A stretch of DNA of 64,000 nt from Candidatus Caccopulliclostridium gallistercoris. Lineage in GTDB: Bacteria > Bacillota > Clostridia > Christensenellales > UBA1242. The translations under genes and the position numbers were made by a program. Where the stretch lies: assembly GCA_018713725.1 (NCBI GenBank), contig DVOJ01000007.1:2486-66485 (forward strand). The letters are read 5' to 3'. The notes beneath the pieces were generated by a model. The model worked only from the letters and a program-made list of their open reading frames with translations. It searched no databases and was not told where the DNA came from. This document shows, one piece after another, positions 34,249 to 50,531 of this stretch; within the stretch, counting starts at the first letter, position 1; the number at the start of each line of letters is the position of its first letter.

Positions 34249-34256
34249 GGGAATTT

Positions 34257-36206
34257 ATGGATAGAATGCAAGAGCTTGTGCAAGAATTAGACAAGCATAT
34301 TTATAACTATTACGTACTTGATAACCCAACCATTTCCGATGCGGAATACGATAAGCTTTACGACGAACTAGTAAAACTTGAAAAGGAAACGGGTATAATT
34401 TTACCAAACTCTCCAACGCAGCGCGTAGGCGGAGAAGTGCTAGAAGGTTTTAAAAAGCATAGGCACGAAGTGCAACTTTATAGCCTAGATAAGTGTCAAA
34501 GTAAAGAAGAGCTAGAAAAGTGGGTAGACGGTATAAAAAAGGTATTTCCAGCCGCTACTTTTGCCGTAGAATATAAGTTCGACGGGCTTACAATAGTTTG
34601 TAAATACCAAAACGGCTTTTTTGTTGAAGCGTCCACTCGCGGCAACGGCATAATAGGCGAAGACGTGACGGAGCAGGCAAAAACTATAAGAAGCATTCCG
34701 CTTAAAATACCGTTTAAAAACGAGCTTTTAATTCAAGGCGAAGGCATGATAACGCTTTCTAACCTAGAAAAATATAATAAAACGTCCACCGAGCCTTTAA
34801 AAAACGCACGAAATGCCGTTGCAGGCGCTATTAGAAATTTAGACCCAAAGGAAACAGCAAAGAGAAAACTAGACCTATTTTCCTATCAAATTTTAAAGAT
34901 AGACGGCAAAACCTTTAAAACGCAAGAAGAAATGCACAACTTTTTAGTTGAAAACGGCTTTAAAACAGGCGACTATTTTAAAATTTGCACAAGTTTTCAA
35001 GAAATTTGGCAGCAAATAGAGCATATAGGAAATATAAAGAAGAGTTTGGACATTTTAATGGACGGCGTTGTAATAAAGTTAAACGAAGTTAGCCATCGCG
35101 ACGAGTTCGGTTACACGGCGAAGTTTCCAAAGTGGGCAATAGCCTTTAAATTTCCAGCAGAAGAGCTTTCCACAACGCTAGAAGACGTAGTTTGGCAAGT
35201 GGGTAGAACGGGTAAACTTACGCCAATTGCTATAATAGACCCAGTAAATTTAGCGGGTGCAAGCGTAAGAAGGGCAACGCTAAACAATATGGGCGACATA
35301 GAAAGAAAGAAGGTAAAAATAGGTAGCCGCGTGTTTGTAAGGCGTAGCAATGAAGTTATACCGGAAATTCTCGGTCTTGCCGAAGATATGCCAAATTCTA
35401 AGGAAATAACAGCGCCCACACATTGTCCAAGTTGCGGGGCGGAGCTAATAGAAAACGGCGCTAACATTTTCTGCCCAAATTCTAGTTCTTGCCCAGAGCA
35501 AATTATAGATAGGCTAACTAATTTTGCTTCGCGTGAAGCCATGGATATAGACGGTTTTAGCATAATGACGGCGGGCGATTTATATGAAAAATTAGGAGTT
35601 AAAAAGTTTCACGAGCTATACACTCTCACGCGTGAAGACGTTTTAAAATTAGAAAATTTTAAGGATAAAAAAGCGGATAATTTATTAAACGCTATAAATA
35701 ACTCTAAAACCGCCACGCTTCCAAAGTTTATTTATGCACTTGGAATAGAAGGCGTGGGCGTTAAAACGGCAAAGGATTTAGCTAAAAAGTTTGGGAATTT
35801 AGAAAATTTAAGAAATGCAAGTTTTGAAGATATTCTTTCCGTGTTTAACATAGGGGAAGTTATAGCAAAGAATATTTTTGACTATTTCCATAATGAAGAT
35901 AACGTTGAAGAACTAGATAAACTATTAAACTTTGTAAAAGTTGAAAATTATAGAGAAGAGATAAAGGAAAACGAATTCACAAATAAAAAAGTTGTAATAA
36001 CAGGCACTTTTGAAAGGTTTGGAAGAATGGAACTTACAGCTCTTCTTGAAAGCTTTGGCGCCCAGGTTGTGGGAAGTGTATCTAAAAATACGGACTTAGT
36101 TCTTGCGGGCGAAAGTGCGGGTAGTAAACTTGCCAAAGCGCAAACTCTTGGCGTTAAAGTTATGGAAGAAGAAGAGTTTTATAGAGTTTTAGACGGGCAA
36201 AATTAA
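34257..36206 (+). CDS. ligA: NAD-dependent DNA ligase
   Basis: 649 aa. Adenylation motif EYKFDG, Zn finger CPSCGAELIENGANIFCPN, HhH repeats and a C-terminal BRCT domain. Confidence 0.95.
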   Translation: MDRMQELVQELDKHIYNYYVLDNPTISDAEYDKLYDELVKLEKETGIILPNSPTQRVGGEVLEGFKKHRHEVQLYSLDKCQSKEELEKWVDGIKKVFPAATFAVEYKFDGLTIVCKYQNGFFVEASTRGNGIIGEDVTEQAKTIRSIPLKIPFKNELLIQGEGMITLSNLEKYNKTSTEPLKNARNAVAGAIRNLDPKETAKRKLDLFSYQILKIDGKTFKTQEEMHNFLVENGFKTGDYFKICTSFQEIWQQIEHIGNIKKSLDILMDGVVIKLNEVSHRDEFGYTAKFPKWAIAFKFPAEELSTTLEDVVWQVGRTGKLTPIAIIDPVNLAGASVRRATLNNMGDIERKKVKIGSRVFVRRSNEVIPEILGLAEDMPNSKEITAPTHCPSCGAELIENGANIFCPNSSSCPEQIIDRLTNFASREAMDIDGFSIMTAGDLYEKLGVKKFHELYTLTREDVLKLENFKDKKADNLLNAINNSKTATLPKFIYALGIEGVGVKTAKDLAKKFGNLENLRNASFEDILSVFNIGEVIAKNIFDYFHNEDNVEELDKLLNFVKVENYREEIKENEFTNKKVVITGTFERFGRMELTALLESFGAQVVGSVSKNTDLVLAGESAGSKLAKAQTLGVKVMEEEEFYRVLDGQN

Positions 36207-37882: not shown

Positions 37883-39967
37883 ATGGAAAATCATATTTTT
37901 GAAACAGAAATTGGCGGTAAAAAGGTTACCGTTGAAACGGGCAGGTACTGCGAGCAAGCAGACGGCACCTGCTGGGTAAAATGCGGTGAAACCGTAATTA
38001 TGGTAAACGTTACCATGGCAGAGCAGCCACGTCCGGGCATAGATTTTTTCCCACTCGGCGTAGATTTTGAAGAAAAAATGTACTCCGTTGGAAAAATCCC
38101 AGGCGGCTTTAAAAAGAGAGAAGGTAGACCTTCCGACAAGGCTATTTTAACGTCAAGACTTATAGACAGACCACTTCGTCCACTTTTCCCAAAGGGCTTT
38201 TTTAACGATGTTAGCGTTGTAGCAACAGCACTTTCAATCGACCCAGACGTAGCACCTGAGCCACTTGCAATGCTTGGTTCTAGTTTTGCGCTAACTATTT
38301 CCGGCATACCATTTGCTGGTCCAACAGGCTCTGTGAACGTAGCTCTTATAGACGGCAAATATATAGCCAACCCAAATAATGAAGAGCGCGAAAAGAGCAG
38401 AATGAGCTTAACCGTAAGCGGAACAAGAGATGCCGTTTTAATGGTTGAAGCTGGCGCCAAGGAAGTTACGGAAGAAGAAATGCTCGGCGGAATTATGTTT
38501 GCGCACGACATTATTAAAAAGCTTGTAGACTTCCAATTAAAAGCAAAGGAAGAAATTGGCAAAGCTCCAAAAGAAGTGGAGTATTATGTAATAGACAAGG
38601 AACTAGAAGACGCAGTTCGTGCTTATGCTAGTGAAAAATTAGATTACGCCTTAGACACTTTTGATAGGCAAGAACGTCAGACACGTCAAGACGAAGTGGA
38701 TAAAGACGTAAAAGAACATTTTGCTGAAACCTTCCCAGAAAAAGAAAGGGAAATCGGCGATGTGCTCTATAAGATGACAAAGGAAAAGGTTAGAGCAAAA
38801 ATCTTAAATAAGGGTATACGTCCAGACGGAAGAAAATTAACGGATATTCGTCCTATTTGGTGCGATGCGGGCGTGCTTCCACGCGTTCACGGCACTGGCG
38901 TGTTCACACGTGGGCAAACACAAGTTTTAACAACATTAACACTTGGCACAATAAGTGATGCTCAAAAACTTGAAGGCTTAGACGACGAAGAAGTAAAGCG
39001 CTACGTACACCACTACAATATGCCTCCATATTCAACAGGAGAAGCTCGCCAATTAAAGAGCCCAGGAAGAAGAGAGATAGGCCACGGTGCACTTGCAGAA
39101 AGGGCGTTAGAGCCAGTTATTCCAAGTGAAGAAGAGTTCCCATACGCATTAAGGCTTGTAAGTGAAGTTTTAAGCTCAAACGGCTCATCATCTATGGCAA
39201 GCGTGTGCGGTTCAACACTTGCACTTATGGACGGCGGCGTTCAAATTAAAGCCCCAGTTGCAGGAATTGCAATGGGTTTAATCAAGGACGACGAAAGCGG
39301 TAAAGTAGCAGTTCTATCCGATATCCAAGGCTTAGAAGATTTCCTTGGCGATATGGACTTTAAGGTTGCAGGTACAACAAAGGGTATTACAGCTATTCAA
39401 ATGGATATAAAAATTAAGGGCATAGACGAAAATATTTTAAGAACAGCCCTAGAACAAGCTCGTCAAGGTAGGCTCTACATTCTAGACAAGATGCTTGCCG
39501 TAATAGACAAGCCACGTGCTGAAATATCTAAGTACGCACCAAAAATTATAACCTTTACAATTAATCCGGATAAGATTAAAGATGTTATTGGTTCCGGCGG
39601 AAAGACAATTAACAATATTATTGAAGAAACCGGCGTAAAGATTGATATAGAAGACGATGGACAAGTGTTCATAGCAACACCAGATTCCGACATGGCAGAA
39701 AAAGCTAAACAAATAATTTTAAATATAGCTGAAGACCTAGAAGTTGGAAAAATCTACTCAGGTAAAGTTGCAAGAATAATGAACTTCGGTGCTTTTGTGG
39801 ACATAGCTCCGGGAAAGGAAGGCATGATTCACATCAGCAAACTTTCTTCTAAACGTGTAGAAAAAGTAGAAGACGTTGTAAACATTGGCGACGAAGTAGA
39901 AGTTGAAGTTATTAAAATTGATAATAAGGGTAGAGTAGACTTAAAACTTGTTGCTGTTAGTAAATAA
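37883..39967 (+). CDS. pnp: polynucleotide phosphorylase
   Basis: 694 aa with two RNase PH domains, a KH domain and a C-terminal S1 domain (GKVARIMNFGAFVDI). Confidence 0.96.
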   Translation: MENHIFETEIGGKKVTVETGRYCEQADGTCWVKCGETVIMVNVTMAEQPRPGIDFFPLGVDFEEKMYSVGKIPGGFKKREGRPSDKAILTSRLIDRPLRPLFPKGFFNDVSVVATALSIDPDVAPEPLAMLGSSFALTISGIPFAGPTGSVNVALIDGKYIANPNNEEREKSRMSLTVSGTRDAVLMVEAGAKEVTEEEMLGGIMFAHDIIKKLVDFQLKAKEEIGKAPKEVEYYVIDKELEDAVRAYASEKLDYALDTFDRQERQTRQDEVDKDVKEHFAETFPEKEREIGDVLYKMTKEKVRAKILNKGIRPDGRKLTDIRPIWCDAGVLPRVHGTGVFTRGQTQVLTTLTLGTISDAQKLEGLDDEEVKRYVHHYNMPPYSTGEARQLKSPGRREIGHGALAERALEPVIPSEEEFPYALRLVSEVLSSNGSSSMASVCGSTLALMDGGVQIKAPVAGIAMGLIKDDESGKVAVLSDIQGLEDFLGDMDFKVAGTTKGITAIQMDIKIKGIDENILRTALEQARQGRLYILDKMLAVIDKPRAEISKYAPKIITFTINPDKIKDVIGSGGKTINNIIEETGVKIDIEDDGQVFIATPDSDMAEKAKQIILNIAEDLEVGKIYSGKVARIMNFGAFVDIAPGKEGMIHISKLSSKRVEKVEDVVNIGDEVEVEVIKIDNKGRVDLKLVAVSK

Positions 39968-40000
39968 AATAAACGGCGCATAGCGGCGTTACTGCCAAAC

Positions 40001-40044
40001 GAGACTAGACAGTTACGTACGTAGGTACGCGCCTGCCTAGTCTC
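40001..40044 (+). repeat. hairpin with a conserved 28-nt core (copy 2)
   Basis: Arms gagactag / ctagtctc flank the identical core acagttacgtacgtaggtacgcgcctgc. As in copy 1, it is followed by the attt-gagccttgct motif. Confidence 0.8.
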
Positions 40045-40225
40045 ATTTGTCGAGCCTTGCTCTGCTTGTTTATTTTTCTTACTAACCATTCTTTAAAATT
40101 TTCAAATAAAAGTAAAAAATACACTCTTGAATTTTCAAGAGTGTTGTTTTTTGCTGTAAACTAATTTTTTAAAATGCTTAACTAAAAACTGCAAATTTAA
40201 TTGCAGTGCTAGTGTTTTTAAATAG

Positions 40226-40429
40226 TTATGCTACAAATAGTACGTCAGGAGTGATTTCTAACGCATTACATATTGCAAATAATGAAGTTAACGAAATGTT
40301 CATTTTTGCGTTTTCTACTTTGTGAATGTAACTTGGATCCTTTTCAATTTTTAATGATAGGGCGTAAGCTGACATTCCTTTTTCTTGTCTTATTTTTGCT
40401 AGTTTTTGACCAAATTCTTTTAAATCCAT
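40226..40429 (-). CDS. XRE-family HTH transcriptional regulator, 67 aa
   Basis: FGQKLAKIRQEKGMSAYALSLKIEKDPSYIHKVENAK is a classic HTH_3 pattern. Confidence 0.8.
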   Translation of the reverse strand: MDLKEFGQKLAKIRQEKGMSAYALSLKIEKDPSYIHKVENAKMNISLTSLFAICNALEITPDVLFVA

Positions 40430-40641
40430 AATTTTACCTCTTATTTTTATTTACAGAATTTCGTAAACTCTATAATTATTATAATGCAATTTTTTAACCC
40501 AATAATTGACTAATATTCACATTATATGCATTTTTTTACAAAAAGCAAGTTATTTTTATCTATTTTTTAATTTTTTCAAAAAAATTTCTAAGAATTGAAG
40601 TGTTTTAGCATTAATAACTTTTTGTTTTCATAATTTAAAGT

Positions 40642-41391
40642 ATGAAATTAATTGTAATGCATCAGAACAATAGTAGCTTAAATTCTAAGGCAAGGCGTTT
40701 TAGAAACGTATTTGCAAATGTTGTAATTTCGCTAATGCTTGTGGGGGTGTTTGCGCTAACTTATGCAGGCGGAGTGCTAAACGTGTTCAGTTCTAGCGGG
40801 GATAGCTTTGCTATATATCATGGCAACACGGAAAATAAAAACGTTAGCTTAATGATTAACGTTTATTGGGGAACGGAATATTTAGAACCTATGCTTGATG
40901 TTTTAAAAGAAAAGAATGCAAAGTGTACCTTTTTTGTAGGTGGCATGTGGGCTTCTAACAATGAAGAGCTTATGAAAAAAATTTTAGATGGCGGACATGA
41001 GCTTGGTAATCATGGCTATTATCATAAAGACCACGATAAAATTTCTAAGGAAAAGAACGAGCAAGAAATTTATCAGACGCATGAAATTGTGAAGGCGTTA
41101 ACGGGTGTTGAAATGAACTTGTTTGCTCCGCCAAGCGGCGCGTATAATCAAACTACGTTAGACGTTGCAAAAACTTATGGCTATCAAACTATAATGTGGA
41201 CTAAGGATACTATAGATTGGCGTGACAAGGTCGCTAAAACTATATACGATAGGGCGGTGGCTAATCCGCAGAACGGGGATTTAATTTTAATGCATCCAAC
41301 TGAAAAAACATTAGAAGTGTTTGGAGATATTATAGACTTTTATCAAGAAAACGGTTTTAATGTAGTTACTGTTTCTGAAAATATTGCATAG
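40642..41391 (+). CDS. membrane-anchored polysaccharide deacetylase (NodB homology domain, PdaB-like)
   Basis: 249 aa. TM anchor, then KCTFFVGGMW, GHELGNHGYYH and LILMHP motifs. Confidence 0.8.
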   Translation: MKLIVMHQNNSSLNSKARRFRNVFANVVISLMLVGVFALTYAGGVLNVFSSSGDSFAIYHGNTENKNVSLMINVYWGTEYLEPMLDVLKEKNAKCTFFVGGMWASNNEELMKKILDGGHELGNHGYYHKDHDKISKEKNEQEIYQTHEIVKALTGVEMNLFAPPSGAYNQTTLDVAKTYGYQTIMWTKDTIDWRDKVAKTIYDRAVANPQNGDLILMHPTEKTLEVFGDIIDFYQENGFNVVTVSENIA

Positions 41392-41397
41392 CGAAGC

Positions 41398-41481
41398 GAA
41401 AGGCGCAGCCCGCCCGTAAGGGCGGGCAATGCCGCTTAAAGCGGCATTAAATTTTGGCATAAGCCAAAATTTGCGCCTTTC
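41398..41481. other. 84-nt perfectly paired four-way junction (cloverleaf-like) element
   Basis: The closing stem gaaaggcgca/tgcgcctttc encloses three abutting hairpins: gcccgccc-gtaa-gggcgggc, aatgccgc-ttaaa-gcggcatt and aaattttggc-ataa-gccaaaattt. The element is preceded by gcgaagc and followed by tattttt. Confidence 0.7.
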
Positions 41482-41525
41482 TATTTTTCACGTTTAAGAT
41501 ATTCAAAAATGGCAATATTTAATGC

Positions 41526-41897
41526 ATGGAAATGTTTTTAAATTATTTGTGGGTATTTTTAATAGGCGGCTTTATATGTATGATAGGGCAAATTTTAATA
41601 ATAAGAACTAATATAACGTCAGCTAGAATTTTAGTTACTTTTGTTTTAATAGGTGTAATTTTAGAGGCTGTAGGAATATTTGAACCCATTTCAGCTTTTG
41701 CAAAAGCGGGCATAAACGTGCCAATTATAGGGTTTGGAGCGTCGCTTGCTAAGGGTGCTATTGCAGGCGTGGAAGCTCGCGGACTTATAGGCGCATTTAC
41801 TGGTGGCTTAGAAGCTGTTGCGGGTGGGATAGCGGCAGCGGTTGGTTTTGCATTTTTGTTTGCTCTCATATTTCACGCACATACAAAAAAGAATTAA
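41526..41897 (+). CDS. spoVAE: stage V sporulation protein AE (SpoVAC/SpoVAEB family)
   Basis: 123 aa. The segments FLIGGFICMIGQILI, VPIIGFGASLAKG and GLIGAFTGGLEAVAGGIAAA are typical of SpoVAEB. Confidence 0.75.
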   Translation: MEMFLNYLWVFLIGGFICMIGQILIIRTNITSARILVTFVLIGVILEAVGIFEPISAFAKAGINVPIIGFGASLAKGAIAGVEARGLIGAFTGGLEAVAGGIAAAVGFAFLFALIFHAHTKKN

Positions 41898-41966
41898 AAT
41901 ATGTATTGCAAATTTTTTCAAGGTGTGATATAGTTTAAGTGAAAAGAATTTTGCGGAGGGTGAATT

Positions 41967-43202
41967 ATGGCAAAATTTAGCGTAAAAAAAGCATTAGCAG
42001 TAGTTGGCTGTTTAACAGCTTTGGGCGCTGGTGTGTTTTTCGGAATAGATGCAGTATCTGATGATTTTAATGTAGTGTTTTATCCAGAAACAACTATAAC
42101 AAGACCAACACCAGATCCAACACCAGATCCAATACCAGTACCAGACCCAACTCCAGTTGTAGTTCAGCTTGCAGCGCCAGCAGTTACATACGACCAAGAA
42201 ACAAATCTTTTATCTTGGAGCGAAGTAGATAACGCTTCAGGTTATAGGGTAATGGTAAATGGGCAGACGAAAGATTACGGAGCAGACACAACAGAATTAG
42301 AAGTAACCATAGACGAAGGCGACTCTTATACCATGTCTGTTCAAGCATTAGGTGACGGAGAAAATTATTCAAACAGTGAAATCTCCACCATAACCGGCGA
42401 GCGCGAAAACCTAGACCAAATGTATTACGAGCAGATTAAAACAGATTTAAAGGAAATTATAGAAGGTAAAACAATTGCATTTGCAAAATATAGCATTCAA
42501 GATTTTTTAAATATAGATTTCCAAGAAAATAATTTACTTGTTACAGCTAAATGTTACTCTAATCAAGGAACAAGTGCTGTATATACAACATTTGCTTTTA
42601 AATTAAATAATCAACACGAAGTTAACACTATTTCTGATATAGCAGATATTGTTAATGAAATTAAGTCCGATTCTACAATAAGGATATCATTACAAAACAC
42701 GCATTATGCAAGTTATGATTATAATTTAGATTGCTATAATAAATTAATTGAAGATACAAAATTAACTGGACAATTAAAAAACTATTTAGATAATGGTTAT
42801 GAGCCTACATTATTATATTCGTGTGTAGGTAGAGGAAATCAAGTAGATAATTTTGCTGTTGATTCCTATATCAAATTAACTAAAGGTAACGATATAAAAG
42901 TTGTAACAGTTCAAAATATTGTATCTCAAAAATATAATGATTCATATGCATTTGATGGTTACGTAAATGCTTATATTAATGGCACGGCAGAAGATGTTAC
43001 AATTGAAGAAACGTCTTTTACTGAAGCATCTCCAGTATCTTCTATATGGCAAGCAGCAAATGATAAATACGGGATTCAAGAGCCGCAAGTAACAAATAAT
43101 AAAAACTTAAACAATATAAAATATGAATCTATGATAATTTCGCAAAACGGAAAGCAATATAAACTTACTTATCCAGTAGACGATTATACAATAGAGTTTT
43201 AA
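41967..43202 (+). CDS. cell-surface protein: signal/lipobox, Pro-Thr-Asp linker, Fn3-like domain, AT-rich C-terminal domain
   Basis: 411 aa with a GGAGGGTG SD. Possible lipobox at LAVVGC. PTPDPTPDPIPVPDPTP linker. The segment LSWSEVDNASGYRVMVNG suggests an Fn3-like domain. Composition drops sharply after about 42470. Confidence 0.7.
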   Translation: MAKFSVKKALAVVGCLTALGAGVFFGIDAVSDDFNVVFYPETTITRPTPDPTPDPIPVPDPTPVVVQLAAPAVTYDQETNLLSWSEVDNASGYRVMVNGQTKDYGADTTELEVTIDEGDSYTMSVQALGDGENYSNSEISTITGERENLDQMYYEQIKTDLKEIIEGKTIAFAKYSIQDFLNIDFQENNLLVTAKCYSNQGTSAVYTTFAFKLNNQHEVNTISDIADIVNEIKSDSTIRISLQNTHYASYDYNLDCYNKLIEDTKLTGQLKNYLDNGYEPTLLYSCVGRGNQVDNFAVDSYIKLTKGNDIKVVTVQNIVSQKYNDSYAFDGYVNAYINGTAEDVTIEETSFTEASPVSSIWQAANDKYGIQEPQVTNNKNLNNIKYESMIISQNGKQYKLTYPVDDYTIEF

Positions 43203-43203
43203 A

Positions 43204-43237
43204 GAAAAATGATTAGTTTAAAACTAATCATTTTTTA
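43204..43237. terminator. bidirectional terminator shared by convergent genes
   Basis: gaaaaa-tgattag-tttaaaa-ctaatca-tttttt. It overlaps the GNAT stop codon. Confidence 0.6.
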
Positions 43238-43691
43238 TTATTTTTCTGAAAGTAGATTTCAAATATTTAAAGTCACTTTTTTTATATAAATTAATAGCTG
43301 GTTCATTTTTGTTATAACAGCAAACTTCATAGTTATATATATTTTGAGATTTTAACCATTTTTCAAATTCCAATATCAATTTAGTAGCTAATCCATTTTT
43401 TCTGTAAGAATCTTTTATATACAATAATTCTAAACTTCCGAGTCCGTTTTTATAACAATAGTTAGGAGTATTTAAAATTTGCCCATATAAAAATCCTATA
43501 GCTATATTTTTATCCCATATTGTAAGCAAAATTGTCCCTTCAATTCCAATTTTGTTGTCAAAAAAATTATCTGGACATTCATTCAATGAATAATCATATT
43601 TTTTTTCGCTATAAAATAAATCTTTAAATAAGTTATTTATTTTTTCTAAATCTTTGTTATTATTAGTTATAAGTTTAATTTTCATATTCAT
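43224..43691 (-). CDS. GNAT-family N-acetyltransferase
   Basis: 155 aa. The segment LELLYIKDSYRKNGLATKLILEFEKWLKSQN matches the (R/Q)xxGxA motif A region. Very AT-rich. Confidence 0.75.
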   Translation of the reverse strand: MNMKIKLITNNNKDLEKINNLFKDLFYSEKKYDYSLNECPDNFFDNKIGIEGTILLTIWDKNIAIGFLYGQILNTPNYCYKNGLGSLELLYIKDSYRKNGLATKLILEFEKWLKSQNIYNYEVCCYNKNEPAINLYKKSDFKYLKSTFRKIIKND

Positions 43692-43737
43692 ATATTAGCA
43701 CTTTTGTAAAAAAAAATAAAGTATTTTGTAAATTTAT

Positions 43738-43766
43738 TTGATTTTTTACATTTTATCGTATATAAT
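43738..43766 (+). promoter_or_regulatory. promoter (TTGATT-17-TATAAT) of the peptide/rSAM cassette
   Basis: TTGATT at 43738-43743 and TATAAT at 43761-43766, followed by the AAAGGAG SD at 43774-43780. Confidence 0.55.
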
Positions 43767-43786
43767 CTAGGAAAAAGGAGTAAGGA

Positions 43787-43948
43787 ATGGATAAAATCTT
43801 AAGTAAATTCAAAAAAACAAGAATTAATGTTAATAAAAGTTTAAATGCTATCGAAAGCGAAAATGGAAAGGGTGCTATTTGTAAATGCCAGTGTGTAGGA
43901 AACAACTGTCAATGTGGAACGAGTAATCCAAATGAAAGAGAAATGTAA
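43787..43948 (+). CDS. 53-aa Cys-rich candidate RiPP precursor peptide (absent from the ORF track)
   Basis: The ATG is 7 nt after the AAAGGAG SD. The peptide is MDKILSKFKKTRINVNKSLNAIESENGKGAICKCQCVGNNCQCGTSNPNEREM, a basic leader followed by CKCQCVGNNCQCG. Its last 17 nt overlap the start of the rSAM gene. Confidence 0.65.
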   Translation: MDKILSKFKKTRINVNKSLNAIESENGKGAICKCQCVGNNCQCGTSNPNEREM

Positions 43949-44969
43949 GCTAAAACTTACAACTTGCTGGTTAAATATTAATAGATGTTGTAACTTGAGA
44001 TGTGAATGGTGTTATGCTAAAAACACTGGATTTGACCCCTATTCAAACATATCTTTAGATGATGCTAAAAAAACTATAAATTTAATTGCAGAGATAGGAA
44101 TAAACTCCGTTATTTTAATTGGGGGAGAACCTACTTTGCATCCTTTTTTATGTGAAATTATAAGGTACGCTAAAGATAAAAGCATGGTTGTTTCTATCGT
44201 TAGTAATGGTCTTAAATTTACTGACATGGACTTTTTACAAAAAGTTAAAGATTCAGGTTTAGACTTTATCAATCTTTCATTAAAAGGTGAAAACCAAAAT
44301 CAATTTCAAAATATTACTGGTGTTGATGCTTTTAATGAGGTTATGAATGCAATTAAGAACATTTCAAAATCAGGTATTGAGTTTAATGTAGCAATGGTAT
44401 TAACTTTAAAAAATATACATTCTTTTTTGAACGGGATAAAAGAAGCTAAAAGATATGGGTGTAATTTTTTTGATTTATCTTTTTGTTACAACTTAAATTT
44501 AGATGATAACAATAAGATTTTTTTAGAAGAAAATAATCCTAAAAAAATTATTGAAGAGTTTTCTAAAATTTATGATGAATTAAATAACATTACTAATGGG
44601 AAATTTGCTTTAGAACAATCTTTTCCATTATGTTTATGGAATAATAATGATGTAATACAAAAAATGATAGAAAGGAAGCAAATAAATACATTGTGTCAAT
44701 TATTGCAAAGACAAGGGTTAATTTTAGATGAAGAATTAAATGTGATTCCTTGTAATGTTTTACATATGTTAAAATTAGGAAATATTAAAGGTTTTACTAA
44801 TGGTAATGAAATTTTAAACTTAGTTAGGAAATCGGAAAGAATATATAATAGATTGACTGCTGTTCCATCAAAAAAATGCGTGAGTTGTAAAGATTATATA
44901 AGTTGTGGTGGTGGATGCCCAGTTCAATGGACCAATTATTCATTTAAAGAATTATTTAACAAATTATAG
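43932..44969 (+). CDS. radical SAM / SPASM-domain peptide-modifying enzyme
   Basis: 345 aa counted from the ATG at 43932 (an alternative GTG is at 43914). The CNLRCEWCY CX3CX2C cluster is at residues 20-27. GGEPTL motif. C-terminal CVSCKDYISCGGGCP SPASM cluster. There is no N-terminal RRE-sized extension. Confidence 0.85.
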   Translation: MKEKCKLKLTTCWLNINRCCNLRCEWCYAKNTGFDPYSNISLDDAKKTINLIAEIGINSVILIGGEPTLHPFLCEIIRYAKDKSMVVSIVSNGLKFTDMDFLQKVKDSGLDFINLSLKGENQNQFQNITGVDAFNEVMNAIKNISKSGIEFNVAMVLTLKNIHSFLNGIKEAKRYGCNFFDLSFCYNLNLDDNNKIFLEENNPKKIIEEFSKIYDELNNITNGKFALEQSFPLCLWNNNDVIQKMIERKQINTLCQLLQRQGLILDEELNVIPCNVLHMLKLGNIKGFTNGNEILNLVRKSERIYNRLTAVPSKKCVSCKDYISCGGGCPVQWTNYSFKELFNKL

Positions 44970-45012
44970 ATATCGCTTGATAAATTCATAATAACTTGTT
45001 AAAATAATAACA

Positions 45013-46614
45013 ATGAAAAAACTATTTAGTGGAATTTTAGTTTGTTTTTTGGTAGCTGTATCATTTTTAACCACAGGTTGTTTTAATTTACCTGGCGGTG
45101 ACGATACAGGTAATTTGTTATATCCTTCTGGCACAATTTCTGGCTATAAGGTTTGTTATAAACCGACACAGTATAATTTTGAAAGATTATTTTTAACCTT
45201 TAGTGATAATATAGTAAGTAATTTATTTACTTATTTTACATTTTATAATTATAGATTCGATGATGAAAATAATTTTCCAGGTGTTTCAGAAGACAACTAT
45301 TTAACTATTTGGGATGAAGCTTTAAATTTAGATAGAGTAAGATACCAACCAAAATTTGTAAATGATGAAGATGGTGTTCAATATTATACCTATGATAATG
45401 TTGGGTGGAATTGGTCATTTGGAGATAATATTGAATTTTTAATAAATCCGCTAATTTCTTCAGGTACAAATGGAAAACTTGAAAAAAATAAAAACATTTT
45501 GGAAGATTTTTTAGCAAGAATTGCAGAATATAATATTTATTACTTAAATGATATTATAAGTATATATTCCACAGTCCTAGAATACAATATTTATGAACTC
45601 GTTCTCGGCAGAACTCCAACAGCACCAGTAATTGAAATTTCAGATACTGCAACTACTGTATTAGAGTCTGTTAAGGTAACTTTAAATAGTCAAATAGTTG
45701 ATGGAACAACTACTACCAGAGATACAATAATGGATCCAATCCAAGAAGAATTTTCTTTATACGGCACTTATGTTGGATTTTCTGAAAGAGATAGGGAAAA
45801 TTTAACTAACTATATCTTGGAAACCGTAATTGGCGACCAAATTGTAAATAATCCAACTTATAATAAAAATAATGAATATCAAACAAAAGTTGCCGAAATT
45901 ATAGAGAATGCTAACCCTACTTCAAATCAAGACGTTGAAGAAGGGCAGGAGCCGCCAAGAGATTTCTTTGACCCATACCCAGCTAGTAAAATTAAAGATT
46001 TTAATGGCACGGCTTTCTATATTAACGGCGGTATAGACGAAAACGGAAACTTGTCTAACACCAACGCTTTTGACCATATTCAATCTGCGGAATATCAAAG
46101 CTTTGTTATCATGCCGGAGCAGGAAGATTTATCCTTATGCGCGCTTTGGCTTGCGTTTGAATCTGAACAGCCAATCGACGCTGTAATTAGAGTGCGTTAT
46201 TATAATGGCGCTGGCAGACTATTTGAAACCGCAAAGCAGCAAATTTCAATGTCTGGCGACCCATTTGACGCAACCACGGATATTGTAATGATGGACCTTG
46301 TTTATAACGAAATTTCAGACACTGAACTAGATACTGAAGTTGATATGATTTTAGATCCGTTTGATAATGAGCTTGACGGCGGAATTTTAAAGGCAGACGA
46401 TATAGATGGCAAGTATGTAACTGGCACGCTTGCACATTACTATAATATAATTGAATCTGATAGCGGTTTTGGGGCTATTGGTGTGCTTAATCATAATAGA
46501 ATACCATTTTCATATATGGAAATAGTAATAGACGTAATTAAAGACCCAAACGAGCCGCAAGCTACTTATCCATTTAAAATGGGTGTTGTTGGAATATTCC
46601 CAACGGCAGAATAA
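45013..46614 (+). CDS. lipoprotein of unknown function
   Basis: 533 aa. Signal peptide with lipobox LTTGC. The 5' 900 nt are very AT-rich and the 3' 700 nt are near 45-50 % GC. Confidence 0.7.
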   Translation: MKKLFSGILVCFLVAVSFLTTGCFNLPGGDDTGNLLYPSGTISGYKVCYKPTQYNFERLFLTFSDNIVSNLFTYFTFYNYRFDDENNFPGVSEDNYLTIWDEALNLDRVRYQPKFVNDEDGVQYYTYDNVGWNWSFGDNIEFLINPLISSGTNGKLEKNKNILEDFLARIAEYNIYYLNDIISIYSTVLEYNIYELVLGRTPTAPVIEISDTATTVLESVKVTLNSQIVDGTTTTRDTIMDPIQEEFSLYGTYVGFSERDRENLTNYILETVIGDQIVNNPTYNKNNEYQTKVAEIIENANPTSNQDVEEGQEPPRDFFDPYPASKIKDFNGTAFYINGGIDENGNLSNTNAFDHIQSAEYQSFVIMPEQEDLSLCALWLAFESEQPIDAVIRVRYYNGAGRLFETAKQQISMSGDPFDATTDIVMMDLVYNEISDTELDTEVDMILDPFDNELDGGILKADDIDGKYVTGTLAHYYNIIESDSGFGAIGVLNHNRIPFSYMEIVIDVIKDPNEPQATYPFKMGVVGIFPTAE

Positions 46615-46625
46615 CGGAGAAAAAT

Positions 46626-46961
46626 ATGGGTTTTTTTGACAAAATTTTAAAAGGTTTAGGTTTTGAAAGTGAAGAAAAGAATAATCCTAAGCCTAAAAAA
46701 GAAATAAAAAGAAAAGCTGGCGAATATACATTAGATGGAGAAGAAGAGGAAATAATTGAAGAAATGAAGCCTAAAAGCCAGGAAGAAGTATCTAAGGTTG
46801 TAGACTACTTAAAAAAAGAAGGTAAAGTTATTGTAAACCTTTCTAATTTTGAAGATACTAATTTTAACACTGCACTAAGTTTTCTTTCTGGCGCCGTGTA
46901 CGCTTTTGGCGGAGAAGTGTATAAGCTAGATGACGCCCGCTACAAACTTTTGGTGGTATAA
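46626..46961 (+). CDS. sepF: cell division protein SepF
   Basis: 111 aa. MGFFDKILKGLGF N-terminus and a C-terminal DUF552-like segment (VIVNLSNFEDTNFNTALSFLSGAVYAFGG). Confidence 0.8.
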   Translation: MGFFDKILKGLGFESEEKNNPKPKKEIKRKAGEYTLDGEEEEIIEEMKPKSQEEVSKVVDYLKKEGKVIVNLSNFEDTNFNTALSFLSGAVYAFGGEVYKLDDARYKLLVV

Positions 46962-47516
46962 ATGGTAAAAAATAAATTCTTTAAAAGGTACAAACGCGGT
47001 CTTTTTGCCATACTTCTTATTTTAGGAATTATAGCGCTTGTAATTGGCGTGGATATTTTAACCAAAGTGCTTACAGACGGTAAATCTATTTTAGTTTTAC
47101 CAAGTTTTTTTAATTTTATATCCGTTCACAACACTGGCGGTGCTTGGAGCATTCTAAACGAGCATACTTGGATATTAATAACTCTAACATTTGTATTTTT
47201 AATAGCATTTTGTATCTTTAATTATTTCTTTAAGCAAAGAACTACCCTCTATCTTGTGGGCTTTTCCTTAGTATTCGGCGGTGCGGTTGGAAATTTGATA
47301 GATAGGTTATTTTTAGGCTACGTTAGAGATTTTATAGCCTTAGATTTTATTAACTTTCCAATATTCAACATTGCAGATATGTGCCTTTGTGCAGGCGTAA
47401 TAGTGCTTCTAGTGTTCTTTTTATTTTTATATCCCAAATACAATAAAAAGTATTTAAAAACTAAGCAAAAATTTGCCTTAGCAAAAAAGCTTAAAAAGGT
47501 TAGTTATGGACTTTAA
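46962..47516 (+). CDS. lspA: lipoprotein signal peptidase II
   Basis: HNTGGAWS, GNLIDR and FNIADM motifs, with four TM helices. Confidence 0.9.
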   Translation: MVKNKFFKRYKRGLFAILLILGIIALVIGVDILTKVLTDGKSILVLPSFFNFISVHNTGGAWSILNEHTWILITLTFVFLIAFCIFNYFFKQRTTLYLVGFSLVFGGAVGNLIDRLFLGYVRDFIALDFINFPIFNIADMCLCAGVIVLLVFFLFLYPKYNKKYLKTKQKFALAKKLKKVSYGL

Positions 47517-48408
47517 TATAGAAGAAAAGGATAAAAATAAGCGCCTAGATATTTTTTTGCTTGAAAAGTATCCAGATTTAACGCGCTCTCATATAAAAAA
47601 CATGATAGACGGCGGGAAAGCGCTTTTAAATGGTAAAACCGTTAAAGCAGGGGAAAAGTTAAGGGTAAACGATAAAATCCACGTTGAAAACTTAGAGCCG
47701 GAAGAAGTTAAAACAAAACCGGAAGATATTCCAATAGAAATTGTATACGAAGACGACGATTTAGCCGTAATAAACAAGCCACAAGGCATGGTGGTGCACG
47801 CAGGCGCGGGGAATACGACCGGAACACTTGTAAACGCGCTTTTATTTAAGCTTAAAAATTTAAGCGGAATAAATGGCAAGCTTCGTCCGGGAATAGTACA
47901 CAGATTAGACAAAAACACGTCTGGGCTTCTTCTTATTGCTAAAAACGATTTTGCGCACAATAGCCTTGCAAAACAAATTCAAGAGAAGACGTGTGTAAGA
48001 AAATACATAGCGCTTTTAGAAGGTACGCTAAAAGAGCAAGAAGGGCATATTGAAACGCATATATCAAGAGATAAAAAGCATAGAACTTTAATGAATGTAT
48101 GCCCAGAAAGCCAAGGCAAACTTGCTATAACAGACTACAAAGTTTTAAAGTACTATAACGGCTATACCTTAGTTGAATTTACTTTAAAAACGGGCAGAAC
48201 TCATCAAATTAGGGTTCATGCATCTAGGGTACTACACAAGCCAATAGTGGGCGATAAGGAGTATAATCCTAGCACAAAATTAAACGGGCAACTGCTCCAC
48301 GCGTATAAAATAGAGTTCACCCAGCCAAGAACTGGGCAAAGGATAACTCTTGAAACGTCGCTTCCGGAAAATTTCAAAAAAGTCCTAAAAAAATTACAGG
48401 AAAAATAG
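47506..48408 (+). CDS. rluD: RluA-family 23S rRNA pseudouridine synthase (RluD-like)
   Basis: N-terminal S4 domain, HRLDKNTSGLLLIAK catalytic motif and GRTHQIRVH. Confidence 0.88.
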   Translation: MDFNIEEKDKNKRLDIFLLEKYPDLTRSHIKNMIDGGKALLNGKTVKAGEKLRVNDKIHVENLEPEEVKTKPEDIPIEIVYEDDDLAVINKPQGMVVHAGAGNTTGTLVNALLFKLKNLSGINGKLRPGIVHRLDKNTSGLLLIAKNDFAHNSLAKQIQEKTCVRKYIALLEGTLKEQEGHIETHISRDKKHRTLMNVCPESQGKLAITDYKVLKYYNGYTLVEFTLKTGRTHQIRVHASRVLHKPIVGDKEYNPSTKLNGQLLHAYKIEFTQPRTGQRITLETSLPENFKKVLKKLQEK

Positions 48409-48456
48409 TAGACAAATTATGTTTTTGAATATATAATTAATAGGTCAAAAGGAGAT

Positions 48457-48807
48457 ATGTATATGGCAAACAAAAGTACTAATAAAAGTTCAAGTAGTTC
48501 TAGTTCAAGCAGTTCTCAAACTACGCAAAAGAGAAACACATCTATTAAATGGGTTTTAAATATGCTTTCATTCTTTGCGCTAGTTCTTGTAGGTATTTGT
48601 TTATTATTGCAAGTTATCTTTAACGCAATCGACGCAAGCAAGCTTGCAGGTGCAACAAATGCTATAAGAACAGTTGGTGAATGTATTGCTTACTGCGTAA
48701 TAGCAGTTTATGCCTTTTTCTTTATTAGACACAAGAAAAATCCAGTTTGGGCAGTACTCTACGCAATTGCACTTACAGCTATATTAATTTTAATTATATT
48801 TAGATAA
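48457..48807 (+). CDS. small membrane protein with an N-terminal poly-Ser tract
   Basis: 116 aa (an alternative start is at 48463). KSSSSSSSSSSQTTQKR is followed by three TM helices. Confidence 0.55.
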   Translation: MYMANKSTNKSSSSSSSSSSQTTQKRNTSIKWVLNMLSFFALVLVGICLLLQVIFNAIDASKLAGATNAIRTVGECIAYCVIAVYAFFFIRHKKNPVWAVLYAIALTAILILIIFR

Positions 48808-49187
48808 TGGCAAAAAAAATTATATTTATTACTATGCTCTCGTTGCTTGCACTGGGCTTTGCGTGCTTAATTTTGCAGCTTGCTAGCCCAGTGTTTGTCT
48901 ATGTTTCGCTATTTTGTTTGGCGCTGTTTTCCGGGCTCTTTGGCGTGTATCAAATTTTTAGGTTTATAGAGCTTAATGCGCAAATTAAAGCGGATTATCC
49001 TTCCTATTTAGCTGAGCTTTATATAAAGGGCGTTGCAACGAAATTTCAAGTAGAAAACGTAGACAAGATGCTTTATAAAGAGCATAAAAAGAAATATTTG
49101 ACATTAAAACTTGTAAACTTTGGGCTAATCATGTTAGGCTTTTCACTGATGATAACTCTTCTTTGTGTGTTTTTTGCCAAAGTTTAA
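48807..49187 (+). CDS. small membrane protein
   Basis: 126 aa. The start abuts the upstream stop codon. Two N-terminal TM helices and one C-terminal TM helix. Confidence 0.5.
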   Translation: MAKKIIFITMLSLLALGFACLILQLASPVFVYVSLFCLALFSGLFGVYQIFRFIELNAQIKADYPSYLAELYIKGVATKFQVENVDKMLYKEHKKKYLTLKLVNFGLIMLGFSLMITLLCVFFAKV

Positions 49188-49198
49188 CAAAAAATTAT

Positions 49199-49227
49199 TT
49201 GAAAATCATTTTAGAGTATGTTATACT
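49199..49227 (+). promoter_or_regulatory. promoter of tig (TTGAAA-17-TATACT)
   Basis: TTGAAA at 49199-49204 and TATACT at 49222-49227. Confidence 0.5.
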
Positions 49228-49250
49228 CTCGCAAGTAAAAGGAGAAAATT

Positions 49251-50531
49251 ATGTATACAGCAGAAAAAATTGAAGGAGACAAATTTAAAGTTAAAATTTC
49301 TTTAACCGCTCAGGAATGGAACGAATATGTAAATGAGGCCTACGAGCAAAACAAAGGAAAATTTTCCGTACAAGGTTTTAGAAAGGGTAAAGTGCCTAAA
49401 AAGGTTATAGAACAAAATTATGGCGCAGACATCTTTTTTGACGACGCGCTTCAACTTGCTTTTTCTAAGGAATACGGCGATATGCTAGCAAAGGAAACGG
49501 AAATTGAACCAGTAGACCACCCAGACGTAAGCCTTGAAAAGTTCGATTCAGACGGTCTTGTTTTAAACGTTACAGTTCAAAGCATGCCAGAAGTTAAACT
49601 TGGAAAATACAAGGGGCTTGAAATAGAGAGTGCTAAGGGCGAAGTTGAAGAAAAACAAGTTGAAAAAGAACTTAATCAAGTTCGTGAACGCAACGCACGC
49701 TACGTAGAAGTTCAAAGAGAAGCAAAGCTTGGCGACTTTGTTACAATCGACTTTTCCGGAAGCATAGACGGAGTTAAATTCCCAGGTGGAGAAGCTAAGG
49801 ACTATCGTTTAGAGCTAGGTTCTAAAAGCTTTATTGAAGGTTTTGAAGAGCAAATTGTTGGAATGAAGATTGGCGAGACAAAAACTATTAAAGTAACATT
49901 CCCAGAAAACTATCATGCTGAGGAACTTAAAGGAAAACCAGCTGATTTTGAAATAACCTTAAAAGGCGTTGAAGAAAAGCAGCTTCCAGAGTTAAACGAC
50001 GAATTTGCTTCAAACGTAAGCGAATTTGAAACATTAGATGAATACAAAAAGGATATTAGGAAACACTTAGAAGAGACTTTAAATGAGCGCTTAGAAAGGG
50101 AAACGGAAAACAATATCATAAAGGCAGTTGTAAAGGAAGCCGAAGTTAACATTCCAGAATGCATGGTCGAAAGCCAGCTCGACGCCTATATGAAGGACAT
50201 GGAAACAAGGCTTGCTTACCAAGGTTTAAAACTAGACGACTATTGCAAATATATGAACACAACGCCTGAAAATATTAGAAAAGAAAACCACGACCACGCT
50301 TTAGAAACTGTAAAAACAAGGCTTGCTATTGAAAAGATTATAGAAGTTGAAAACTTAAAAGTTACAGACGAAGAACTTGATTCAAAACTTGAAGAAGTGG
50401 CTAAAAAGTACAACAAAACAGTAGATGACTATAAAAAGTCTTTGGGCGAAAAACAACTAATATACTTTGAAAACGATATTTTAATGGATAAACTTGTTAA
50501 GTTCTTAAAAGAAAATAATAAATTAATTTAA
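49251..50531 (+). CDS. tig: trigger factor
   Basis: 426 aa. GFRKGKVPKKVIE ribosome-binding motif and a central FKBP-type PPIase (GDFVTIDFSGSIDGVKFPGG). Confidence 0.95.
   Translation: MYTAEKIEGDKFKVKISLTAQEWNEYVNEAYEQNKGKFSVQGFRKGKVPKKVIEQNYGADIFFDDALQLAFSKEYGDMLAKETEIEPVDHPDVSLEKFDSDGLVLNVTVQSMPEVKLGKYKGLEIESAKGEVEEKQVEKELNQVRERNARYVEVQREAKLGDFVTIDFSGSIDGVKFPGGEAKDYRLELGSKSFIEGFEEQIVGMKIGETKTIKVTFPENYHAEELKGKPADFEITLKGVEEKQLPELNDEFASNVSEFETLDEYKKDIRKHLEETLNERLERETENNIIKAVVKEAEVNIPECMVESQLDAYMKDMETRLAYQGLKLDDYCKYMNTTPENIRKENHDHALETVKTRLAIEKIIEVENLKVTDEELDSKLEEVAKKYNKTVDDYKKSLGEKQLIYFENDILMDKLVKFLKENNKLI

Follow-up and report, generated by a model that had tools for sequence, protein, structure and literature searches.

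This report concerns a two-gene cassette in a 64,000-nucleotide stretch of DNA from Candidatus Caccopulliclostridium gallistercoris (contig DVOJ01000007.1; the whole of that stretch is called the window), made up of a 53-codon open reading frame (ORF) and, overlapping its end, the gene for a 345-residue radical S-adenosylmethionine (SAM)/SPASM enzyme. Probably the two encode the precursor of a peptide that is made on the ribosome and modified after translation (RiPP) and its maturase, being transcribed together and translationally coupled (Table 1). That they are a true precursor-maturase pair is very probable from the comparisons set out below, and for Cys thioether formation as the chemistry that the enzyme would carry out the case stands about even. 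In its logic the cassette resembles a sactipeptide or ranthipeptide system, yet it is a member of no named family, and the maturase has no RiPP recognition element (RRE).

Purifying selection on the peptide ORF is very strong and marks it as a real gene. Against the syntenic sister-species locus L001, where the enzyme is 85% identical, it shows 12 synonymous and 3 non-synonymous differences, a ratio of non-synonymous to synonymous differences per site (pN/pS) of 0.05 that compares with 0.165 for the enzyme gene and with values above 1 for the same DNA in its other two frames. The five differences that fall in the core are all synonymous, and two of them lie in Cys codons. In the sister-species locus L002 the peptide is 96% identical and is the best conserved of 13 syntenic genes, the remaining 12 spanning 52-95%. 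L001 is a mosaic, being either a recombinant strain or a chimeric metagenome contig: compared with window positions 39052-50017 it is 78-86% identical up to the lipoprotein gene and 98-99.7% identical from SepF on, with pS of 0.43-0.69 in the divergent part and 0.00-0.07 from SepF on. An hypervariable allelic island at the cassette was considered and dropped because L001 is such a mosaic, L002, whose enzyme sequence is the same as that of L001, being about 77% identical to the window at the DNA level throughout. The original prediction, made from the letters of this DNA, had called the ORF unannotated, and this is right for the ORF track it was given and for that track only, since gene callers predicted the ORF in L001-L003 and public collections, NCBI nr and UniRef among them, contain the protein, which was seen on 52 contigs and carries no family assignment. 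A search with the peptide sequence brought up no relatives outside its own 90% cluster, and neither NCBIfam (at E <= 1) nor Pfam gave a match.

Kinship with other peptides becomes visible in the leader. A hidden Markov model (HMM) of the leader alone, made from the first 30 residues of 61 peptides that all come from other loci, ranks the window peptide first of the 469 small ORFs in the window (E 0.006; the next has 0.8). The family pattern, hydrophobic-x-x-(K/R/Y)-x-(G/A/T)-T-x-(I/L/N), is present in the window peptide in the version ILSKFKKTRINVNKSL, and is exemplified elsewhere by LL..YKGT.I.AP.A.G., by LLERRNATNISL and, in L038, by KLLKTRHTTNFNF. When the same HMM was scanned against 17,605 candidate ORF starts in 93 loci, matches at E < 0.01 fell on the adjacent same-strand ORF in 42 loci and nowhere else; at E < 1 the adjacent same-strand ORF was matched in 68 of the 93, in unrelated surroundings, with two non-adjacent matches, one of which is a further CxC-rich precursor (L078). 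Peptides outside the training set are recovered too (L071, L089, L095, L099 and L100).

The cores are hypervariable, with from one Cys (NYDCDP) to 23, and Cys is the sole residue type found in every one of them. They are dominated by Cys (28% of core residues), Asp (20%), Gly, Ser and Asn; a Cys follows directly on Asp in 42% and on Asn in 11% of cases, and 50 of 57 family peptides have one or more CxC motifs. By a strict criterion (at least four Cys in 14 residues and at least two CxC, on the same strand and within -500/+600 nt) a CxC segment stands beside the enzyme gene in 34 of 81 loci, where the flanks would lead one to expect about 0.04 per locus. The window core CKCQCVGNNCQC has three CxC motifs, and its pentapeptide CKCQC recurs in L044. 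Several paralogous precursors are found per locus in L004, L011, L078 and L098.

Taken together these features delimit a family, as yet uncurated, of RRE-less SPASM enzymes with ten invariant Cys, each with an adjacent same-strand peptide that has the family leader and a Cys-containing C-terminal core; the window pair shows the enzyme homology, the top leader match and the three CxC motifs. The original prediction had spoken of an orphan cassette, and this is contradicted by the size and cross-phylum spread of the family: a protein search gave 151 enzyme homologues, an exhaustive HMM search 1,216 enzyme clusters at 50% identity (E <= 1e-30), and the species-representative genomes hold at least 532 relatives. 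Bacillota members come from Erysipelotrichaceae, Lachnospiraceae, Christensenellaceae and others, many relatives are Patescibacteria and Saccharibacteria, and further metagenome-assembled genomes (MAGs) with the family are labelled Proteobacteria, Verrucomicrobiia, Bacteroidota and Actinomycetota. A metagenome scan with the window enzyme gave 8 loci, all at or below 38% identity. Beside almost every enzyme gene in the fetched loci there is an adjacent same-strand small ORF, which lies mostly downstream in distant relatives and upstream in the window and several Bacillota. At 28-43% enzyme identity and in unrelated neighbourhoods a Cys-rich ORF with the leader motif still sits directly beside the enzyme gene, and in L004, an Erysipelotrichaceae MAG with unrelated context and an enzyme 43% identical, small Cys-rich ORFs flank it on both sides (53 residues, ending ...CGGSDCDCWTGNNCNCDCNCDCSSDD, and 55 residues, ending ...CSWQCVCDCDCHDEGICQCADCSGE). 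The original prediction had made conservation of the small ORF beside orthologous enzymes a test of its precursor-maturase reading; the ORF is co-conserved with the enzyme, and that reading is borne out by leader-motif peptides in distant relatives and by the Radical_SAM and SPASM cut-offs that the enzyme passes. Eleven further family peptides were likewise without a match in NCBIfam and Pfam, and the enzymes of four distant family members attained no equivalog cut-off among SCIFF/ScfB, CcpM, anSME, PapB, PqqE, MftC, StsB and ACGX. Full-text literature searches brought up no description of the family, although an unnamed mention in Haft and Basu 2011, Hudson et al. 2019 or the RaS-RiPP atlas is possible.

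The enzyme itself scores 83.4 bits with Pfam Radical_SAM (PF04055, cut-off 29.5) and also matches Fer4_12, and its C-terminal 126 residues (220-345) score 32.1 bits with the SPASM model TIGR04085 (cut-off 27); no match to the Pfam SPASM model PF13186 was reported for it. None of its 79 NCBIfam matches attains the cut-off of the model concerned. By E-value AhbD, MoaA and NirJ lead these, with 84-96 bits against cut-offs of 231-515, and are confined to the N-terminal radical SAM core at residues ~8-185, while NirJ2, GeoRSP, PapB, WgkB and not_ScfB match weakly over the full length. In an alignment (A1) that has the window enzyme as first sequence with 40 homologues, which cover 94-100% of it, exactly ten Cys are invariant or nearly so, three belonging to CX3CX2C and seven lying in the C-terminal half. 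The further C185 is Cys in only 55% of homologues, and therefore seven Cys ligands serve the two presumed auxiliary clusters. The motifs named in the original prediction, C20-x3-C24-x2-C27 and C316-x2-C319-x5-C325-GGG-C329, are both in place.

A profile search of the Protein Data Bank with A1 finds SuiB best (1e-26; enzyme residues 15-338 against SuiB 136-452, which is all of SuiB but its RRE), followed by SkfB, CteB (enzyme 5-332 against CteB 96-423) and anSME, and these nearest solved relatives all modify peptides. The AlphaFold2 model of the enzyme (predicted local distance difference test 92, predicted template modelling score 0.90) has its first barrel strand at residues 11-15, and because the model opens with that strand there is no room for a fused RRE, a domain of about 90 residues. 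Since the HMM alignments too begin within the barrel, at residues 5-15, the lack of an N-terminal RRE seen in the original prediction is upheld, and no discrete PqqD-like RRE (PF05402) was found among the window neighbours. Foldseek gives whole-chain template modelling (TM) scores of ~0.70 for anSME, ~0.70 for ChlB and 0.67 for SuiB, at 13-20% sequence identity.

Comparison with named systems places the cassette near several and within none. PapB of the freyrasin system, a ranthipeptide maturase (NF047865), is likewise a short SPASM enzyme (both about 330-345 residues) with a leader-bearing peptide substrate in which Cys and acidic residues recur, and its model aligns with the window enzyme from end to end (window enzyme 10-331, model 3-318 of 330). 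At 56.9 bits against a cut-off of 340 the window enzyme is however not a member, the leaders are unrelated, and the CX3D cores of PapB substrates differ from the CxC or (D/N)C repeats of the family, the window core having no CX3D/CX3E repeat and no Asp beside Cys. The PapB leader is expected by its authors to bind an RRE (PMC9413430), whereas the window enzyme has none. PapB can join a Cys to an Asp or Glu further along the chain with 0 to 6 residues between them (PMC9413430), and by analogy such spacing tolerance would fit the CDCD cores of the family.

The SCIFF/ScfB system of anaerobic Bacillota shares the minimal plan, in which a SPASM maturase accompanies a Cys-rich peptide and there is neither protease nor exporter. 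In contrast to ScfB (model length 451) the window enzyme is ~100 residues shorter and without the N-terminal RRE region; the window peptide does not match TIGR03973 (cut-off 50), TIGR03974 (cut-off 425) is absent from the 25 best matches of the enzyme, all at or below 96 bits, and not_ScfB gives the enzyme 54.9 bits against a cut-off of 855. A genuine SCIFF precursor, a six-cysteine ranthipeptide, lies elsewhere in the window at 102-248 on the minus strand (MKRINTIQTRNLKDSLCGGGCGECQTSCQSACKTSCGVTNQKCENVNA) and, with 78.4 bits against 50 for TIGR03973, provides a positive control. Its ScfB maturase would lie past the left window end, and the genome carries two unrelated Cys-rich peptide/radical SAM cassettes. 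The echo of the SCIFF leader that the original prediction had heard in the KTRINV of the window peptide is not homology, as the family leader HMM gives the window SCIFF -0.3 bits. A BLASTP E of 1.7e-4 between the two peptides, obtained with composition correction off, aligns the Cys-rich stretches, and leader homology was rejected.

CteB is among the best solved relatives and its alignment spans the full enzyme, and the StsA core CxCxCx4GxGxG starts with CxCxC as does the window CKCQC, StsB turning the CxCxC core of StsA into three sactionine thioether links (PMC10288494). However CteB has a fused and StsB a separate RRE, where the window enzyme has neither, and the StsB model matches its N-terminal half only, at 68.5 bits against 625. 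One auxiliary cluster of CteB, with no more than three protein ligands and an open coordination site, is bound by a Cys of the substrate, and the seven invariant auxiliary Cys of the window enzyme are, by analogy, compatible with a site of the CteB type. The anSMEs resemble the window enzyme in having no RRE and in fold over the whole chain, but the anSME model (TIGR03942, cut-off 349) gives 16.6 bits on the C-terminal part and is absent from the full-length top 25, and the anSME substrate motif C/S-x-P/A-x-R is missing from the window peptide. For the cyclophane synthase ChlB a crystal with the substrate leader exists (9gm3); ChlB needs an aromatic-x-basic motif and the Lys-Trp cyclase SuiB Lys plus Trp, and the window peptide has neither motif. 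As models for RRE-independent recognition anSME, ChlB and SuiB may nonetheless serve by analogy.

The ACGX-repeat system (TIGR04340, Haft) also has a ~340-residue SPASM enzyme without RRE beside peptides of short-period Cys repeats, and GACGACGACG cores occur in the family loci L013, L014, L017 and L019. Membership of these GACGACG-core relatives in the ACGX system was rejected, as their enzymes and peptides fall below or do not match the ACGX models; the best TIGR04340 score, that of the L035 enzyme, is 50.3 against a cut-off of 400. For the CLI_3235/CcpM system (TIGR04065/TIGR04068, enzyme cut-off 500) the peptide gave no match and TIGR04068 is outside the 25 best matches of the enzyme, of which the lowest has 50.3 bits. 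PqqE and MftC score 57.3 and 68.2 bits against 381 and 265, the peptide has no Tyr, which the E-x3-Y or C-terminal VY of their substrates would require, and no PqqD-like partner was found. Identity as a viperin or defence enzyme was also rejected, the PADLOC pVip matches covering the generic radical SAM core only and NCBIfam viperin scoring 59 against 180. A compendium of ~15,000 RiPP radical SAM enzymes was built on RRE association, and maturases unassociated with an RRE need other filters (PMC10288494).

For the precursor-maturase pair a mechanism can be proposed along precedented lines. The leader (residues 1 to ~30) would dock directly on the enzyme, independently of an RRE, in the manner of SuiB and ChlB. 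Reductive cleavage of SAM would yield a 5'-deoxyadenosyl radical able to abstract hydrogen from a core residue, and the thiolate of a core Cys, which may sit on the auxiliary cluster that the protein supplies with just three Cys ligands, would capture the carbon radical to give a thioether, with a mass change of -2 Da per link. In the window peptide up to five links would be possible. Across the family the preferred partners would be the Asp or Asn flanking each Cys, whereas the window core offers Lys, Gln, Asn and Val. Given that no dedicated protease or exporter is at hand, the product may remain intracellular like SCIFF or use general machinery, and the neighbouring GNAT may acetylate it. 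Since no residue type other than Cys is present in every core, a chemistry centred on Cys is indicated, and for SPASM enzymes acting on Cys the thioether is the best precedented outcome.

A number of points weigh against this account. With the leader HMM the window peptide reaches a modest 12.2 bits, and its core is atypical for the family, with no Asp beside Cys and a single N-C pair; as the core is without Asp, the acceptor residues are therefore uncertain. Cross-link chemistry is not readable from sequence, and the top fold matches differ widely in theirs, from Cys/Ser oxidation (anSME) to cyclophane formation (ChlB). Seven auxiliary Cys are no proof of an open cluster site, a non-Cys ligand being possible. 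The extra enzymes of some relatives (a second SPASM protein, an HExxH protein) mean that the family chemistry may exceed one step. At the window locus no leader peptidase, exporter or immunity gene was found, and a secreted antimicrobial role is unsupported.

A genuine precursor-maturase pair with chemistry other than thioether formation, whether anSME-like Cys oxidation to formylglycine or thioaldehyde, C-C or C-O cross-links, epimerisation or an undescribed CxC reaction, is judged unlikely. It would accord with the best full-length folds, anSME and ChlB, neither of them a thioether synthase, with the failure of the thioether-maturase equivalogs PapB, StsB and not_ScfB to be matched at cut-off, and with the few sterically sensible acceptors left when Cys is every second residue. 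Yet Cys is common to all cores, even the single-Cys NYDCDP, which points to Cys reacting; oxidation of the anSME kind sits poorly with the missing substrate motif and the low anSME score, and cyclophane or Lys-Trp links with the lack of the required aromatics in the window core. As to function, an intracellular metal-binding (metallothionein-like) or redox peptide, following the logic of SCIFF or mycofactocin and with cross-links that pre-organise the remaining Cys, Asp and Asn ligands, is a proposal to be taken seriously if on balance doubtful. The want of exporter, protease and immunity genes in the window and in most Bacillota loci suits it, as do cores mainly of Cys, Asp, Gly, Ser and Asn, the presence of the family in reduced-genome Patescibacteria and a two-gene architecture like that of SCIFF, itself present in the window. 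Hypervariable cores, paralogous precursors and a patchy cross-phylum spread are however more typical of antagonistic or signalling peptides, and about 25 loci have an HExxH peptidase-like protein that would suit leader removal. A broader proposal combines these threads: a large cross-phylum RRE-less RiPP family that RRE-based mining has missed, with an undescribed modification of alternating (D/N)C or CxC repeats, for which very small or contiguous Cys-to-neighbour rings or a cross-linked metal-binding scaffold are candidates, and a product that stays intracellular, for metal or redox roles or for the conflict roles at which the helicase-linked sister clade hints, and is not a classical secreted bacteriocin. 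Taken whole this is rather improbable.

Two further explanations would take the cassette out of peptide maturation or into another setting. Were the small ORF incidental or regulatory, the enzyme would act on a non-peptide substrate, as in AhbD, NirJ or MoaA-like cofactor and haem maturation, and it is indeed AhbD, MoaA and NirJ that head the NCBIfam matches by E-value. Those matches, however, span the N-terminal core only and lie far from their cut-offs, purifying selection bears harder on the ORF than on the enzyme gene, leader and adjacency are kept in the 68 of 93 loci, and no haem or molybdenum cofactor genes are nearby in the window. The original prediction had allowed that firm clustering with anSME or cofactor-maturation enzymes would count against it; by HMM the enzyme lies outside those equivalogs. 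An incidental ORF is thus largely refuted by co-conservation and deserves next to no credence. It is also very improbable that the cassette belongs to a conflict or defence module or descends from one. Here the suggestive loci are L098, L099 and L101, tightly packed on one strand with HIRAN and UvrD genes in shuffled order, L100 with a 1467-residue superfamily 1 (SF1) helicase and L097 with a resolvase and a DNA-methylase fragment; the helicases match GajB models (1e-73 to 1e-81), and PDC-M03B is matched by the HIRAN protein. The window by contrast has no adjacent helicase, the nearest being the housekeeping PcrA-LigA (32059-36206) ~9.5 kb upstream, its neighbours are housekeeping and envelope genes that are syntenic in sister species, and the pVip and viperin comparisons fail as described above.

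Much new peptide chemistry comes from radical SAM RiPPs, for which systematic searches have relied on the RRE. The window pair gives access to a family unnamed in current catalogues, without RRE and with its own leader, whose cores run from D-C-D to more than 20 Cys, and a minimal 53-residue substrate with a 345-residue enzyme suits the study of how an RRE-less SPASM enzyme acts on CxC and recognises a leader. If Cys-to-neighbour thioethers are formed, the ring topologies of ranthipeptides and sactipeptides would be extended; should the product be a metal or redox peptide that works inside the cell, this would bear on the unexplained role of SCIFF-type cassettes and on peptide metabolism in reduced-genome Patescibacteria; and if the link is an ordinary sactionine, the outcome is a solid, unsurprising new RiPP family. 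New radical SAM RiPP families turn up regularly, and unusual chemistry is here only a proposal.

Table 1. Features of the cassette and its surroundings (window positions, except for the last row, where positions are those within the named loci)
Feature	Position	Strand	Detail
Promoter candidate, sigma-70-like	43738..43766	+	TTGATT 43738-43743, 17-nt spacer, TATAAT 43761-43766; direct reading and promoter scan
Shine-Dalgarno sequence AAAGGAG	43774..43780	+	6 nt before peptide ATG (43787); kept in L001
Small peptide ORF, 53 codons	43787-43948	+	Translation MDKILSKFKKTRINVNKSLNAIESENGKGAICKCQCVGNNCQCGTSNPNEREM
Leader region, peptide residues 1-30, MDKILSKFKKTRINVNKSLNAIESENGKGA	43787..43876	+	Leader-only HMM, top rank in window
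Core region, residues 31-53, ICKCQCVGNNCQCGTSNPNEREM, plus stop codon	43877..43948	+	Cys 32, 34, 36, 41, 43
Radical SAM/SPASM enzyme, predicted peptide maturase, 345 residues, without RRE	43932..44969	+	ATG 43932; 17-nt overlap with end of peptide ORF
CX3CX2C radical SAM [4Fe-4S] motif, C20, C24, C27	43989..44012	+	(Nearly) invariant in 40 homologues
Auxiliary-cluster region	44631..44918	+	Seven invariant Cys: C234, C255, C274, C316, C319, C325, C329; includes CX2CX5CX3C
GNAT acetyltransferase, 155 residues, divergent; possible accessory or tailoring gene, membership uncertain	43224..43691	-	PF00583 1.1e-12
Helicase-linked loci of relatives	L098:786-5499, L099:1404-5071, L101:1-3306, L100:1-4177, L007/L008/L012		Gene order shuffled between loci

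The promoter, Shine-Dalgarno sequence, 53-codon ORF and 17-nt overlap that the original prediction described were all recovered. Promoter-like sites number 23 in the window against 22.7 expected from shuffles of this AT-rich DNA, and given that agreement the promoter match on its own is weak and uninformative; the sister-species locus L001 retains both hexamers. The window scan gave no terminator-like site between the enzyme gene and the downstream lipoprotein gene, and Rfam and tRNA scans no match near the cassette. Around it lie the divergent GNAT, two family-less lipoprotein-like genes, SepF, LspA, RluD and PNPase, with PcrA-LigA further upstream; that no protease or exporter adjoins the cassette in the window, as the original prediction had noted, is confirmed.

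The GNAT had been taken for a mere neighbour. It is there and divergent as described, but it may belong to the cassette. It is syntenic in sister species, and the 1.75 kb that it makes up with the peptide and enzyme genes has the lowest GC content in the window (0.247 against 0.355 +/- 0.033). In four other loci (L055, L064, L080 and L086) GNAT genes lie upstream on the same strand, and a GNAT domain is fused at the enzyme N-terminus in P0061 and P0062, with a CxC peptide downstream in L087. GNATs are common. A specific kinship of the window GNAT with the P0061-fused or the L055-type GNAT was rejected at pairwise E of 0.72 and 8e-4, and the 4e-6 (phmmer) obtained with the L080 GNAT reflects generic, weak similarity. 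Participation of the GNAT in cassette function falls a little short of an even chance on these circumstantial links.

A wider GC trough of 0.21-0.30 extends over window positions 42580-45550 and takes in, besides the GNAT, peptide and enzyme genes, the 3' half of the 411-residue and the 5' third of the 533-residue lipoprotein-like gene, which suggests an old acquisition or an accessory-gene character of the block. The two flanking lipoprotein-like genes, which belong to no family, are 52% and 73% identical to their sister-species counterparts in L002.

In relatives the cassette can be larger. About 25 loci of the candidate phyla radiation type (e.g. L026:2364-3059 and L034:5153-5809) have a conserved downstream protein of ~200 residues in which H-E-x-x-H are the sole invariant residues. 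It belongs to no Pfam family and has a faint likeness to zincin peptidases (leukotriene A4 hydrolase catalytic region, E 0.006; SprT-like; DUF5700), and is a candidate leader peptidase or tailoring enzyme of the alpha-ketoglutarate-HExxH type. Eight loci have a second radical SAM enzyme of ~450 residues, akin to the Clo7bot and CefB maturases. At L097:2144-3397, L098:4047-5288 and L101:2890-3306 there is a second SPASM protein, ~415 residues long, whose radical SAM region is degenerate. Its N-terminus (MEKIDLSFIKKT...GFG) resembles the precursor leader, the L101 copy matching the leader HMM at E 0.009, and may serve a partner enzyme as a docking tag of leader type; behind it come extra CDC-rich peptides with a different leader (MK.I.DFVTNSSEADYY).

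In the nearest enzyme clade (41-48% identity) peptide and radical SAM genes stand closely packed on one strand with the gene of a UvrD/GajB-like SF1 helicase and often that of a small HIRAN protein, and such a joining of a RiPP cassette to a helicase is unusual. Some family enzymes are themselves longer: P0150, P0208, P0223, P0230 and P0247 (560-587 residues) have C-terminal extensions of ~220 residues, which in P0208, P0223 and P0230 are a common conserved domain of unknown type, and P0218, P0225 and P0240 exceed 1000 residues, with multiple matched stretches. Long enzyme fusions of this sort could indicate further partners.

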